This document shows positions 2,965 through 24,858 of a stretch of DNA of 64,000 bases, one piece after another. Each line of letters starts with the position of its first letter. The stretch's first letter is position 1. A model generated the notes under the pieces. That model saw nothing but the letters and a program-made list of their open reading frames with translations, was not told the DNA's origin and searched no databases. This DNA comes from Candidatus Kapaibacterium sp. (GTDB lineage: Bacteria > Bacteroidota > Ignavibacteria > Palsa-1295), in contig JBBSDW010000001.1 of NCBI GenBank assembly GCA_038240295.1, positions 24,875 to 88,874 of the forward strand, given 5' to 3'. Position numbers and translations under genes: made by a program.

Positions 2965-3786
2965 TCAGGGCTCGGGGACATCGGGTACTAACCCGTATGC
3001 CTCGTCGCCAATGATCGGCAGGAGCACCTTTCGGAGTCTTGCCTTCGCTCTAAAAATTCTAATACGGATTGTCGAAAGAGATGTTCCGGTCATCTTCCCG
3101 ATCTCATCGTATGTCATGCCTTCATAGTCGCTGAGAAGCAATGCCTCTCGGTATGTCTCGGGCAGCGATGCGATTGCTTTCAGCAGCAGATCGGTCTGCT
3201 CTTTCTTCGACATTCGCTCGAGCGGATCGTCGATCACTGAGAATGCACTCCGGACATCTGCTCGAACGTCTTCATCAAAATTTTCTGCGTCCCCGACTCG
3301 TTCGGTCCGCATGACGTGCTGCACAAACTTTCGCTTGGAGATCAAGCAGGTATGTCTGGTCACCGTAAAGATCCAGGCTCTGAAATCGCCGCCAACGAAC
3401 GTATGCTGATACTGCGTCACCCGCAGAAATACTTCCTGAAACGTGTCGTCGACGTGAGCAGCGTCCATTCCCGCAGAGTAGAGCGCACGGGCGCAATACG
3501 CGTAGATATTGCTCTTATACCGATCGTACATTTTGAGGAACGCCGACTGACTCCCCTGCTGGAACAATCTGAAGAGCGCCTCGTCGCTATCCGGATTTTC
3601 AATGAACTGACCTTCGTGCGAAGGATTTTCGGATTCCTGAGCGCCCGTTTGCACCCTCCGAGAGTATTGCTTTCGCGATGCCTCGTTTCTGGCATCGTTC
3701 AGCAACGGATCGGACGACGCAGCGCCGAAGCCCTGGGTCTCCTGATCGTTCTCCGAATGATCGTGCGTTTCGCTTGAAACCGACAT
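2965..3786 (-). CDS. RNA polymerase ECF-type sigma-70 factor with a ~90 aa acidic N-terminal extension
   Basis: Region 2 (DTFQEVFLRV..FRAWIFTVTRHTCLISKRK) and region 4 HTH (LPETYREALLLSDYEGMTYDEIGKMTGTSLSTIRIRIFRAKARLRK). Confidence 0.85.
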   Translation of the reverse strand: MSVSSETHDHSENDQETQGFGAASSDPLLNDARNEASRKQYSRRVQTGAQESENPSHEGQFIENPDSDEALFRLFQQGSQSAFLKMYDRYKSNIYAYCARALYSAGMDAAHVDDTFQEVFLRVTQYQHTFVGGDFRAWIFTVTRHTCLISKRKFVQHVMRTERVGDAENFDEDVRADVRSAFSVIDDPLERMSKKEQTDLLLKAIASLPETYREALLLSDYEGMTYDEIGKMTGTSLSTIRIRIFRAKARLRKVLLPIIGDEAYGLVPDVPEP

Positions 3787-20353: not shown

Positions 20354-20991
20354 CTTTCAAGCACGGCTTTCGATTGAATATTGTACTCTTTGGCAAGCCG
20401 TTTTCCACGTTCGGCTTGATCCGAGGGCACGGTCCATGCCATGTTGAAGATCTCGCTTTTTGGTCGCAGCACTTTTTCGGGATTGCGATGACAATCGAGG
20501 CACCACTCCATCTGGAGCGGGCTGACTTGCATCATGAGCGGCATTTGATCGACACGACCATGACACGTCGAGCAGCCTACGCCTTTGCTGACATGAATGC
20601 TGTGGTTGAAATAGACGAAGTCTGGCAGATCGTGCACTTTCGTCCACCGAATCGGCTTCCCGGTTCGAAAACTTGCGCGCACCGGTTCGAGGTATGGGCT
20701 ATCCTTCCAGATTTGCGAATGGCAGTTCATGCAGACGCGAGTCGGCGGAATTCCAGCTGACGCGGCCTTTTCGACGGAAGTGTGACAGTAGCGGCAATCG
20801 AGTCCGACATCGCCAACGTGATGCTTGTGACTGAACTGAACGGGCTGTTCGCGAGCAACGAACGCGTGCGTGATGTAATTGGAACGGTTGAATTCGGCGA
20901 TCGCGAACAGCGCACCAACAATAATGAACAGAGTCCCAAAAATGGTGACTCGGGCAAGCGTGTTCGTACTGTGGTGAAAGATCTGAGACAT
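20332..20991 (-). CDS. actA: Alternative complex III subunit ActA (pentahaem cytochrome c)
   Basis: Five CxxCH motifs (CRYCH, CMNCH, CSTCH, CLDCH, CSTCH) and an N-terminal TM anchor. Confidence 0.9.
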   Translation of the reverse strand: MSQIFHHSTNTLARVTIFGTLFIIVGALFAIAEFNRSNYITHAFVAREQPVQFSHKHHVGDVGLDCRYCHTSVEKAASAGIPPTRVCMNCHSQIWKDSPYLEPVRASFRTGKPIRWTKVHDLPDFVYFNHSIHVSKGVGCSTCHGRVDQMPLMMQVSPLQMEWCLDCHRNPEKVLRPKSEIFNMAWTVPSDQAERGKRLAKEYNIQSKAVLESCSTCHR

Positions 20992-21202
20992 TCCCTAAGT
21001 CTAAGTCTTAGCAAGCGAAGCATCGGCACGGTGCGAGCGTGATGAGTAACGCTCGCTCTGGAATTGAGTTGCGGGCTTAACATGCGCACTTCTGAAATTG
21101 ATTCAATGAAAAGTGATAAACTTTTTTTATTATTCACAAGATTTGAGCGCGATTTTTGCACGGACAATCATTGCACACTATCATTACGAAGACAAACGAC
21201 GT

Positions 21203-21463
21203 ATGAACGACTTGAAGTTACTCAACACCTACGGCACCCAGTTCGAGGCTGAACTTGTAAAAAATAGGCTTGAACGCGAGGGCATCGAAGCTGCGATCGA
21301 ATCTCACGATGCCTCCGGTATGTTCCCTTCTGTAGATTATGCCGACGGCGTACGCGTCTATGTCGAGCCAGATGATTACGAAGAGGCAGTCGCCATTACG
21401 ACCGTGAGCGATGAGAACCAGCTTGATAACATCGATGCCAGCGAGACGCTCGCAGAAGAATAA
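21203..21463 (+). CDS. Small DUF2007-like hypothetical protein
   Basis: 87 aa acidic protein (MNDLKLLNTYGTQFEAELVKNRLEREGIEA...). The internal Met was chosen as the start because the upstream part of the ORF overlaps the actA promoter region. Confidence 0.35.
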   Translation: MNDLKLLNTYGTQFEAELVKNRLEREGIEAAIESHDASGMFPSVDYADGVRVYVEPDDYEEAVAITTVSDENQLDNIDASETLAEE

Positions 21464-21464
21464 A

Positions 21465-21839
21465 CTATTCGAGGTCTCCTACGATGAACGAGAGGAGGAT
21501 TCCTCCGTATGTCTGCGTGTGATTGCTGACAAAGCCGGTAAGTTCAAAGCCAGCGAGATCCGAGAGTTTATATCCGAAGATTGCTTGCGCCGTTCCTCCG
21601 AGTCCAGAAAGCTCATAGGAATATTGTAGCGTTCGGGGTCCGCCCGGCGGGGTGTAGTAGCTGTCGACGGTAGCCCTTGTATAATTAGGTCCGGCTGCGA
21701 TCGTAGCCCAAAAGTCTCCTTGACGCAAGGTTGCGCCCCATTCAAGGCCGACTAAAGCTCGCAGCACGAAAAAGCTCTGCCGAATTTTTCCGAAGTCCGA
21801 AGGTAGACGTATACCGGAGCACGAGCGTTTGCCAGTCAT
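21465..21839 (-). CDS. Hypothetical protein (Gly/Tyr/Thr-rich); last gene of the interrupted-sigma operon
   Basis: ORF whose start overlaps the upstream gene's stop by 4 bp (ATGA). Confidence 0.35.
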   Translation of the reverse strand: MTGKRSCSGIRLPSDFGKIRQSFFVLRALVGLEWGATLRQGDFWATIAAGPNYTRATVDSYYTPPGGPRTLQYSYELSGLGGTAQAIFGYKLSDLAGFELTGFVSNHTQTYGGILLSFIVGDLE

Positions 21840-22543
21840 GGTGAACCTCGACCTGTATACCCCCCTCCTGTCGTATTCAGCGAACTCATGACAATACCCG
21901 CCTGGAGCCCGGCGCTGAACTGAAATCGAGACGGAGTTAGAGCTGTACTGTGATGATCTACGACTGCTGCTGCCATTTGACGTGAGAACGCAGCAGTAGA
22001 CGCGGAGTCTGATTCGCCCGCTCTCGCATTTTGATCAACAATGTCTCGGTTCTTTGCCGGGGCGTTAGTTGCCCGGATGTTGCTCGACTGTCCATTCAGC
22101 TTGGAAGAGGGATCGCCAATTCCCACCGAAGGCACTCCTGTATCCTGAGCGCGCGTCGAAGTCTGGATCCAATTCCTATTAGATCCACTTATCGGCTTAA
22201 CATGTGATCGAAACTTCGGTAACACGCCTGCACCAAGTTTGAGACTGGACGAAGCTATTGCGTCCAGGTTCGAAATCGGATCGACGCCCTGCTCTTGACT
22301 CGGCATGAGGATGTGTTGCGCGGAGCTCGATGTTATAAATCGCCGCCCCAGTGGCGCGCTTCCAATGAAACGGACAACGAGCACCATCGCAACAGCCAAT
22401 CCACCACACACAAGAACAAGAGGCCGCTTAGACCTTGGGGTCACGGTGTTTTTACGAACGAACGATCGAAGGTCGGCCAGAGATACGGCAGCGTTGTCGG
22501 CGCGCAGGGGCAGGAAAATATCTCCGCTATTTGTAAAAGACAT
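21836..22543 (-). CDS. Membrane-anchored hypothetical protein, possibly an anti-sigma factor
   Basis: One TM helix (LVLVCGGLAVAMVLVV) followed by a Ser/Thr/Ala-rich periplasmic region. Directly downstream of the ECF sigma gene. Confidence 0.4.
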   Translation of the reverse strand: MSFTNSGDIFLPLRADNAAVSLADLRSFVRKNTVTPRSKRPLVLVCGGLAVAMVLVVRFIGSAPLGRRFITSSSAQHILMPSQEQGVDPISNLDAIASSSLKLGAGVLPKFRSHVKPISGSNRNWIQTSTRAQDTGVPSVGIGDPSSKLNGQSSNIRATNAPAKNRDIVDQNARAGESDSASTAAFSRQMAAAVVDHHSTALTPSRFQFSAGLQAGIVMSSLNTTGGGYTGRGSP

Positions 22544-22620
22544 GCGCTGACTTGCGTAAAATTTATCTGGTTATGCCAATTTCTGGATTTTCCATTTCAC
22601 CGTTGCGACTGGGGCATCGC

Positions 22621-23040
22621 TCATCCTGAACCGCCTTGCACGTCGCGAATCTCTTCGATCGAGAGTCCGCTAAATTCGAAGAGCATTAACGATTCACGCT
22701 GCGCCTCGGGCAGAGCGCTGAGCGCCTCCATGAGCAAGTCAAGATCGTGTGGGGACTCGGATGAGTCTTCGATGCTCGCATCACCGGCTTCAGATTCCGA
22801 TGCGAAAATTTTGTGACGCCAAACCTTTCGCTTGTGTATGCGAACCGCGATCGTAAAAAGAAATTTCCGGAATGCGAGTTGATCTTTAAGCTTTGAAAAG
22901 CTTTTGTGCGATGCAAGCACCGCGTCGCTCACAAGATCCTTAGCATCTTCGCGCGAGCGCGTAAGCCCAAGTGCGAAACGCCATAGTCACGCGCGACTTT
23001 CTTCGATCAGTTGCCAAAATCTTTCCTCTGTTTCGTGCAT
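22621..23040 (-). pseudogene. Small ECF sigma factor interrupted by an in-frame TGA (opal) codon
   Basis: Minus-strand translation from ATG at 23038-23040 gives MHETEERFWQLIEESRA, then TGA (plus-strand tca at 22987-22989), then LWRFALGLTRSREDAKDLVSDAVL...FRKFLFTIAVRIHKRK...ALSALPEAQRESLMLFEFSGLSIEEI in the same frame. Regions 2.1-2.4 and 4.2 are all present. The ORF track only detects the GTG-initiated distal 103 aa. Confidence 0.6.
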
Positions 23041-23190
23041 CTGGATTGTAGGTGACGCAGCGATGGAAAAAGTCGCAGAGGATTTGGATGTATGTTATGC
23101 TGGCATCTGGAATTCTCGCGCCTCAACCGCCCAACGACGGGATAGACTGCTTCCAGTGCGAGGCGAAGAAAGTACGCAAGTCATTTCACC

Positions 23191-24858
23191 TCAAATATTC
23201 GGCAAGATGTCGAAGTATTCGTTGTCTTCGTTGCTTCCGCCCTCACCCAAGCCAATTTCCTTCTCGGACTCGATGAACTCAATGTGCTCGATCCATTTGA
23301 CCATTTTGTATCCGAGTTGATTCTCCACTCGAAGCCTCAGCGGTGCGCCGTATTCAAGACCAAGCGGCGCTCCGTTCATCTCGTAGGCGAGGAGGCACTC
23401 TGGCTTAAGGACGTTGTCAATGCTCTGTGTGTCGTAATAGATGCCTCCGTACGGGCCTTCGCCAAACGAAAAGAAGGCGACGGTCCTGGCAGTAGCTGTT
23501 GGCTTTACCAAATCCACGATCGTTTTCATCGACACGCCTCCCCACTCTGCAATGCCAGACCACCCTTGAATGCAATGGTGCATCGAAATATGCTCCGCTT
23601 TACTAAGCGCTTCAAGATCCGAAAGCGACAATTGCATCGGCCGCTCCACCAAACCTCCGATCTTTAATTTGTAATCTCGAAAGCTTCCCGCGGCTAATTC
23701 TTTCCAATCTTCGCGGACAGGCCGTTTGCCGTTTGGCCAAAAATAAGGCGAAATCTGCGCTTTGGTATATCGCTCGCTGGGATCGAGTTTGTTGAGCGTC
23801 GCGAGCCGGAGCGGTTGAGTGATCGTCTTTTGGAGGTGCTGCAACATTCGTGGATATTTCCAGGACGTATAGTGCGCAACGATCCAGCACGCTACCACAA
23901 CTGCAATACCGGTAAAGCCGAGAATCATCCCGAGCGGATTCAGATCGTTCGTGCCTCGAACAATGTGGTTCATGTTCTGAGTAAATCCAGTCAGGATAAC
24001 CAATGTTACATGAACGGCTAAGAACCCAACCCAACCGAGCATCATCAAAAAGTGGATCGAGCGTGCGCCTTGTCTTCCACCAAAGAATCGGAGAAACCAC
24101 GAAAAGCGATTCGCCATTGCCGGTGACATCGCCGCACCGGTAAGGATCGAGACAGGCGCAAATAAAAATATCGCTGCAAAGTACGCTAACTGTTGCAGCG
24201 CGTTATATCCATAAAAGCCGTTGGGTTCAGGCGGAAATTGGAAGTTCGCATAATGTACGAACGTGCTCCAGGCCTGCGGGAATACGACCCACGACGTTGG
24301 TACGACGCGCACCCACTGTCCAGAAATAAAAAGCATCGGGATGAAGATCAGCCCGGTGATGATGAATCCATAGACATCGATGAAGTGCCATGAGCGAGCG
24401 ACTCCGACCGTATGTCGATAGCCGGGCAGTGCAAAGATTGGTGAAATGTAACGATCATCGTCCTTGGCGGTCCACACGCGATCACGTGGTACCTTGAGGG
24501 GTGTGAAGCGAATCCATTCGGAATCGGGGGTGCAGCCATCGTTGAAATACAACCGTGGATGGTCCATAAGGATCGAAAGACCACTACGGACGAGCATCGT
24601 TAAAAAGAGAAAATTAAAGAAGTGCGCATACCGAACCCACACCGGAAACCCATGAGGGCCAATGGCAGATGCCTCGCTAAATTGAGGAACGAGAGGGATA
24701 TACGGCATCCCGAAAATAGCAACTTGCAGCCAGGCCACCACTAACACAAGAAGGATCAACAGTCCTACCCAGGTAAGAATCGATGGTCTGATCCAGATCC
24801 GAAATCGCCGGTCTGGTGGATAATAAACAGCTTTATGCGCTGCGTCGAAAGACATCAT
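23191..24858 (-). CDS. Fusion of a membrane b-type cytochrome domain with a sulfite-oxidase-family molybdopterin oxidoreductase domain (MsrQ-MsrP-like)
   Basis: N-terminal ~370 aa with multiple TM helices and conserved His residues. C-terminal Moco domain (MHHCIQGWSGIAEWGGV...LLAYEMNGAPLGLEYGAPLRLRVENQLGYKMVKWIEHIEF) resembles MsrP/YedY. Confidence 0.7.
   Translation of the reverse strand: MMSFDAAHKAVYYPPDRRFRIWIRPSILTWVGLLILLVLVVAWLQVAIFGMPYIPLVPQFSEASAIGPHGFPVWVRYAHFFNFLFLTMLVRSGLSILMDHPRLYFNDGCTPDSEWIRFTPLKVPRDRVWTAKDDDRYISPIFALPGYRHTVGVARSWHFIDVYGFIITGLIFIPMLFISGQWVRVVPTSWVVFPQAWSTFVHYANFQFPPEPNGFYGYNALQQLAYFAAIFLFAPVSILTGAAMSPAMANRFSWFLRFFGGRQGARSIHFLMMLGWVGFLAVHVTLVILTGFTQNMNHIVRGTNDLNPLGMILGFTGIAVVVACWIVAHYTSWKYPRMLQHLQKTITQPLRLATLNKLDPSERYTKAQISPYFWPNGKRPVREDWKELAAGSFRDYKLKIGGLVERPMQLSLSDLEALSKAEHISMHHCIQGWSGIAEWGGVSMKTIVDLVKPTATARTVAFFSFGEGPYGGIYYDTQSIDNVLKPECLLAYEMNGAPLGLEYGAPLRLRVENQLGYKMVKWIEHIEFIESEKEIGLGEGGSNEDNEYFDILPNI

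Follow-up and report, generated by a model that had tools for sequence, protein, structure and literature searches.

Probable pseudogenisation of a two-gene ECF sigma/anti-sigma-like operon in which an in-frame TGA is one of several lesions

Introduction

ECF (group IV) sigma-70 factors paired with a single-pass membrane anti-sigma are recognized by model TIGR02937 and by the domain pair PF04542 and PF08281. When bacterial genes decay, the usual course is nonsense mutation and frameshift, then deletion, as in the loss of sigma factor genes from the reduced genome of Mycobacterium leprae. The rpoS amber allele (codon 33) of Escherichia coli K-12 laboratory strains carries an early in-frame stop, and some activity is left. 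Programmed UGA recoding is described as selenocysteine insertion and as leaky UGA, and a UGA followed by C is considered a leaky context in E. coli.

We analysed a 64-kb stretch of DNA, hereafter the window, in which an earlier note had described an ECF sigma factor gene on the minus strand, broken by a single in-frame TGA but with regions 2.1-2.4 and 4.2 present and nothing else missing. Set against its relatives, this gene and the one downstream carry further damage. We conclude, with high though not complete confidence, that the two genes form an ECF sigma/anti-sigma-like operon undergoing pseudogenisation, with at least four disabling mutations, the TGA among them.

Results

The sigma factor frame

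The sigma frame begins on the minus strand at an ATG (23040-23038) with the opening peptide MHETEERFWQLIEESRA, and its codon 18 is the in-frame TGA (22989-22987), designated lesion S1. Beyond codon 18 the frame continues as LWRFALGLTRSREDAKDLVSDAVL...LMLFEFSGLSIEEIRDVQGGSG (immediately after the stop, LWRFALGL...LSIEEIRDVQGGSG) until it is terminated by a second TGA at 22623-22621. With the stop replaced, the sequence matches Sigma70_r2 (PF04542) at 33.1 bits against a cut-off of 24, over residues 11-68, and Sigma70_r4_2 (PF08281) at 26.9 bits against a cut-off of 25.7. Region 2 is thus present once the stop is replaced; the S1 TGA falls inside the PF04542 match, so that in the actual sequence region 2 is interrupted. 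An orthologue of 60% identity spans the S1 stop in one tblastn segment, and the frame is therefore not a chance ORF. The ATG, the TGA and the sigma-like frame running to 22621, as first described, are all borne out by sequence, translation, Pfam and tblastn.

The repaired sigma sequence passes NCBIfam model TIGR02937 (57.3 bits versus 42.9), matching only model positions 3-156 of 165, and is 60-64% identical to P0002-P0005 and to the sigma factor of L020. This pass and the clear orthologues identify the gene as an ECF sigma factor by descent. The feature as a whole is a sigma factor pseudogene at 22571-23040 on the minus strand, running from the ATG to the TAA that closes a displaced remnant of region 4.2; it rests on the region 2 match, the partial region 4.2 match and 60-64% identity to intact orthologues of 167-192 aa. 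The locus offers no uninterrupted ORF of the length typical of close relatives (167-200 aa). Its longest ORF is a 103-aa fragment starting at GTG 22932 (P0001), the only part of the gene annotated in the source record. An alternative frame supplying a continuous sigma factor had been allowed for earlier; all three frames were translated, and none restores region 4.2.

Region 4.2 and the C-terminal tail

In frame, PF08281 is matched over no more than positions 2-32 of its 54. In the relatives P0002-P0006 (167-200 aa, 46-63% identity), QGG[ST] is followed by three residues, by VKxRLxRGRExL (also written xSGVKxRLxRGR) and then by a tail; the spacing of three residues from QGG[ST] to VK holds in relatives that have the QGG[ST] motif. 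In the window, 26 nt (22626-22601) separate the GGS codons from GTG AAA (VK), which lies in another frame, where L020 has 9 nt. Nucleotide comparison with L020 thus defines lesion S2 (22601-22626, minus strand), a frameshift of net +17 nt relative to the 9 nt of relatives, which includes the premature TGA at 22623-22621.

Past this lesion, in the displaced frame, lies VATVKWKIQKLA followed by a stop (22571-22609, minus strand), which the splice test with the Pfam region 4.2 profile marks as a remnant of the recognition helix. Joining VATVKWKIQKLA to the sequence ending in QGGS extends the match from 2-32 to 2-47 and raises it from 30.3 to 36.0 bits, a gain of 5.7 bits and 15 profile positions; an intact orthologue in the same test covers 2-54 at 50 bits. 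Three other reconstructions served as controls, one reading through in frame, one using the third frame and one leaving the extra residues in place, and none extended the region 4.2 match in Pfam. The modest gain of 5.7 bits suggests that VATVKWKIQKLA is the displaced recognition helix. No single frame holds a complete region 4.2 helix-turn-helix, since 17 nt must be removed to reach 2-47.

The tail is lost as well. Among relatives whose 3' end is complete and whose match is near-full-length, 30-69 residues follow QGG[ST], while the window has one and then a stop, and the repaired sigma gene remains about 40 C-terminal codons short of its relatives. The claim that nothing but the single codon was amiss does not survive: region 4 is matched at 2-32 of 54, its helix is out of frame and the tail is absent.

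What relatives carry at the in-frame TGA

From 99 loci fetched, 86 relatives cover the S1 column (22987-22989, minus strand). Their residues there are Arg in 31, Ser in 14, Gly in nine, Pro in seven, Ala and Asp in five each, Lys and Val in four each, Leu and Asn in two each, and Thr, Gln and Glu in one each. Neither Trp, Cys nor an aromatic residue occurs there in any of the 86, and none has a stop at this column or elsewhere in frame within the aligned region. The expectation that ECF sigma factors usually have an aromatic or hydrophobic residue at this codon finds no support in a column of Arg, Ser, Gly, Pro and others that is never aromatic, and the proposed orthologue check for TGG or TGC at this codon gave Trp or Cys in 0 of 86. 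The closest intact relatives have GGA as the codon, others have CGN, and L003, a syntenic relative described below, has CCA. A single substitution turns GGA or CGA into TGA.

Stop codon usage and RNA structure

Of the window's 49 long ORFs, 16 end in TGA, and under code 11 those of 1,059, 1,082 and 1,646 aa are unbroken. Stop usage and these intact long ORFs rule out an alternative code in which TGA is read as an amino acid (codes 4 and 25). A stretch of 71 nt starting just before the S1 TGA has a minimum free energy of -25.7 kcal/mol; its shuffles average -24.1 kcal/mol (z = -0.56), and 50 of 200 fold as well. No Rfam family was found in 20900-23400 at E <= 1. This fold score and the empty Rfam search exclude a SECIS or other RNA element at S1 as a candidate. 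Selenoprotein status finds no footing here, with no Cys in relatives and no significant hairpin.

The partner gene

Directly downstream, the earlier note had seen a putative membrane anti-sigma factor and a further ORF of the same operon. Both are pieces of one gene, split by two frameshifts. This anti-sigma-like partner pseudogene (21465-22543, minus strand, from BLAST against L020 and L025) consists of ORF2 (22543-21836), a middle piece in the third frame (21864-21757) and ORF3 (21839-21465). In L020, whose sigma factor is 64% identical, the sigma gene is immediately followed by a single ORF of 368 aa, and in L025 (sigma factor 51% identical) by one of 355 aa. ORF3 is matched by both (E = 8e-34 for L020 and 7e-25 for L025), ORF2 by the L020 ORF at E = 1e-5 and not significantly by the L025 ORF. 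Loci more distant than these two are too far removed for a comparison of partner genes: neither ORF2 nor ORF3 has a significant match to the partner genes of L016 (176 aa), L002 (355 aa), L001 (599 aa) or L004.

Aligned to the window by tblastn, the L020 protein passes through three consecutive frames at 46%, 64% and 59% identity: the frame of ORF2 through ...AGLQAGIVMSSLN, the third-frame piece GGIQVEVHHDWQTLVLRYTSTFGLRKNSAELFRAAS at 21864-21757 with 64%, and the frame of ORF3 starting at VGLEWGATLRQGDFW... with 59%. Lesion A1 (21859-21865, minus strand), at the first change of frame, is one extra nucleotide in or beside a G6 run (GGAGGGGGGT), where the window reads ACA GGA GGG GGG T ATA CAG GTC and L020 reads ACA GGT GGA GGA GTG CAG ATC. 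Lesion A2 (21747-21765, minus strand) is a frameshift of net -32 nt, 19 nt standing where L020 has 51 nt; in L025 this stretch is similar in length to that of L020. A 44-nt GGTATAC...GGTATAC direct repeat near A1 was considered as the cause of the frameshift and rejected, as dropping one copy leaves the ORF3 frame unrestored.

In members of the partner family (about 330-368 aa; L020 approximately 1095-2107, L025 4522-5589), a short segment at the N-terminus leads into a hydrophobic stretch; a variable linker then joins this to a conserved C-terminal domain of about 150 aa, which bears the motifs HHDWQ, GDFWA..AGPN and GFVSNHTxTYGG. The repaired partner protein has no Pfam or NCBIfam match. From its position and layout we infer that the partner is a putative anti-sigma factor, and its C-terminal 150 aa or so may be a putative anti-sigma sensor domain without a described family.

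Elsewhere the downstream gene varies. In the more distant Ignavibacteriota locus L004 (6578-7619) the partner gene is split into overlapping ORFs of 140 and 252 aa, the result of a further frameshift or of a misassembly in the MAG; L002 has a single ORF of 355 aa. Different genes follow the sigma gene in L016 (6001-8439; sigma factor 60% identical) and also in L017-L019 and L023. Those of L016 encode a 176-aa protein with an N-terminal layout like that of ORF2, two paralogous proteins of 196-198 aa and a 42-aa ORF, with no Pfam hit on record for any of them; the hydrophobic N-termini of the two paralogues suggest that they may be secreted. On the plus strand of the window, a small DUF2007 gene (PF09413, 21113-21463) lies between the partner pseudogene and a pentahaem cytochrome gene and has 71% amino acid identity to its counterpart in L003. 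The window also holds a second sigma-70 family gene (2965-3786, minus strand), intact and 273 aa long; its regions 2 and 4 are of ECF type, and about 85 aa of N-terminal extension precede them.

A promoter-like motif upstream

Upstream of the sigma gene lies an ECF-type promoter-like motif (23049-23077, minus strand), identified by its conservation upstream of orthologues: TGCGAC at 23077-23072, a 15-nt spacer, and GTCACCTA at 23056-23049, ending 8 nt upstream of the sigma ATG. The arrangement TGCAAC-TTTTT-N~10-GTCACCTA is kept upstream of the intact orthologues L016, L021 and L032 and of the L003 remnant, ending 8-10 nt before the start. Judged from this conservation, the motif would be the -35/-10-like pair of an autoregulated ECF promoter. 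It looks like one that would give a nearly leaderless mRNA.

Deletion of the operon in a syntenic relative

The Ignavibacteria MAG contig JABDDM010000031 (L003) is syntenic with the window on both sides of the operon at about 76% nucleotide identity by blastn. Shared genes are DAHP-synthase-like and CoA-binding-like upstream, and downstream the DUF2007 gene followed by an apparent alternative-complex-III-type operon. By blastn synteny, alignment of the junction and translation of L003, about 1.39 kb of the operon has been deleted in L003, corresponding to 21531-22918 of the window (minus strand), from codon 42 of the sigma gene to a point 19 codons short of the partner's end. What remains is 41 sigma codons joined in frame to the last 19 partner codons, MQDSDERFWQLIEACRAPLWRFALGLTRSREDAKDLVSDAV running into SNHTQTYGGILLSFVMGDL and a stop. 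The locus is thus dispensable in a related lineage. At L003 6001-6186 the deletion is exactly in frame and leaves a chimeric ORF of 60 codons; microhomology at the junction is just 2-3 nt (..GCGGT/C AGCAA..). The S1 TGA is absent from L003, and at least S1 is therefore specific to the lineage of the window.

In the window, a 555-aa gene (23191-24858, minus strand) separates the sigma pseudogene from the CoA-binding gene; in it, a cytochrome b561-like membrane domain (PF01292) is fused to a molybdopterin oxidoreductase domain (PF00174). L003 is without this gene, having about 32 bp where the window has about 2 kb, which makes a second indel directly beside the decaying operon.

The 59 codons retained by both the window and L003 have pN 0.066 and pS 0.80, the latter saturated. 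Five flanking intact genes align full-length between the two and have pN of 0.05-0.14 and pS of 0.67-0.77. The remnants resemble flanking genes in pN and pS and thus carry the mark of purifying selection during most of the divergence between the window and L003. From the low pN of the remnants and the promoter-like motif still present, we infer that inactivation was recent relative to the split of the window and L003, in both lineages.

Lesions in a second assembly

The Logan contig L100 (923 bp, run SRR24807096) is 100% identical to 22576-21654 of the window and reproduces both A1 and A2. The exact ORF2 product is also on record from the Logan assembly of that run. SRR24807096 may be the run behind the source assembly, in which case L100 controls for the assembler and not for sequencing. 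L100 ends at 22576; the S1 TGA and the 17-nt insertion of S2 lie outside its coverage and are seen in one assembly only. The contig stops 5 nt short of the TAA that closes the displaced helix remnant and about 25 nt from the zone of the 17-nt insertion, and the break could reflect strain variation that branched the assembly graph. Genome and metagenome collections yielded no same-species contigs, the nearest having 64-67% identity, and exact-protein look-ups of P0001 and of the 555-aa neighbour found no record.

Discussion

Measured against intact orthologues, the sigma gene has S1, S2 and tail loss and the partner gene has A1 and A2, several independent lesions in adjacent genes. The locus is non-functional, since no frame and no read-through event supplies a sigma factor in full. 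In the proposed course of decay, one substitution at a variable polar codon, most simply an ancestral GGA or CGA, would have given the sigma gene its nonsense codon; a net insertion of 17 nt would have shifted the frame of the helix in region 4.2 that recognizes the -35 element, and the tail at the C-terminus would have been lost. A +1 slip in the G-run and a net deletion of 32 nt would account for the state of the co-transcribed partner, and the nearest sequenced relative, L003, would have deleted most of the operon independently. A recent nonsense mutation, as suggested before, is in essence right, one substitution from GGA or CGA being enough; the accompanying premise of an otherwise intact gene fails on S2, the tail loss and the two frameshifts of the partner.

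Could the genome in reality have an intact operon, with sequencing or assembly at fault? A1, one extra nucleotide in a G6 homopolymer, sits where sequencing errors typically occur; the source appears to be one NCBI contig of 101,673 bp, with no second assembly found over the sigma gene, and L100 stops just short of the sigma 3' lesion, which could mark a branch in the assembly graph. Against this, four kinds of lesion (a substitution and changes of +17, +1 and -32 nt) and a missing tail fall within 1.6 kb, and multi-base indels outside repeats are untypical of sequencing errors. The 49 long ORFs of the 64-kb window are uninterrupted, and the five flanking genes are full-length against L003. 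A1 and A2 recur exactly in L100 as an independent assembly, and the related lineage has genuinely lost the operon. An artefact is therefore unlikely, and so is sequencing error, raised at the outset to explain the stop, as the whole explanation. Further down the scale of probability lies regulated read-through or recoding of the UGA, at low level, by a near-cognate Trp tRNA or by selenocysteine, to give a functional sigma factor; it had also been suggested, and we regard it as extremely improbable. The S1 stop is followed by C (TGA CTA), the promoter-like motif is kept, and conservation of the frame is good as far as region 4.2, with 60-64% identity to intact orthologues. The stop is nevertheless conserved in none of the 86 relatives, where Trp and Cys are equally missing from the column; no stable or stimulatory structure and no Rfam element follows it, and TGA is a normal terminator in this genome. 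A read-through product would still end at 22623-22621 without the helix that binds the -35 element, and so would not be complete, and the partner gene is broken as well.

It is very unlikely that a truncated product has been retained for a function of its own, with the 103-aa fragment from GTG 22932 or a read-through form without helix 4.2 serving as a decoy for core RNA polymerase or the anti-sigma factor. The 103-aa ORF does exist and is annotated as a gene, and pN is low in the conserved remnants; recent inactivation explains the low pN equally well, dS being saturated between the window and L003. Regions 2.1-2.2 and the latter half of region 4.2 are missing from the fragment, its putative binding partner is itself frameshifted twice, and L003 has discarded the whole corresponding part. 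We give a similarly slight chance to a switchable contingency locus, in which slippage in the G-run of the partner together with a leaky UGA-C would let rare cells, or a sub-population collapsed by the assembler, express the system; on that account the break of L100 at 22576 could reflect strain heterogeneity around the 17-nt insertion.

In annotation, two pseudogenes, one for the sigma factor and one for its partner, should stand in place of three small hypothetical proteins. The locus does not belong among candidates for read-through or recoding, and beyond annotation its significance is small. The same ECF module has been lost by two related Ignavibacteria-like lineages, each in its own way (point lesions against a deletion of 1.39 kb), which suggests that the regulator is dispensable in the clade. 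The conserved C-terminal domain of the partner family, about 150 aa and so far undescribed, may merit separate study.

Compared with ECF sigma factors and their single-pass membrane anti-sigma factors, the locus still has a recognizable region 2 and the first half of region 4.2, a partner directly downstream with a short N-terminal segment and a hydrophobic stretch, and a promoter-like motif upstream. It departs from them in that the sigma gene has a stop, a frameshift and no tail, and in that the partner matches no Pfam or NCBIfam anti-sigma domain. To programmed UGA recoding, whether selenocysteine insertion or leaky UGA, the likeness is an in-frame UGA followed by C and nothing more; here the stop is unconserved, relatives are without Cys, no SECIS-like hairpin is present and the downstream ORF is broken. 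The rpoS amber allele shares the early in-frame stop in a sigma factor gene, but the rest of rpoS is intact and suppression or re-initiation rescues it, whereas here region 4.2 is destroyed and rescue fails. From bacterial pseudogenes the locus shows no notable difference, with several independent lesions in adjacent, functionally linked genes, intact orthologues elsewhere and L003 at a later stage of deletion. Unlike genome-wide reduction of the M. leprae type, the loss here is local, since the flanking genome looks intact.
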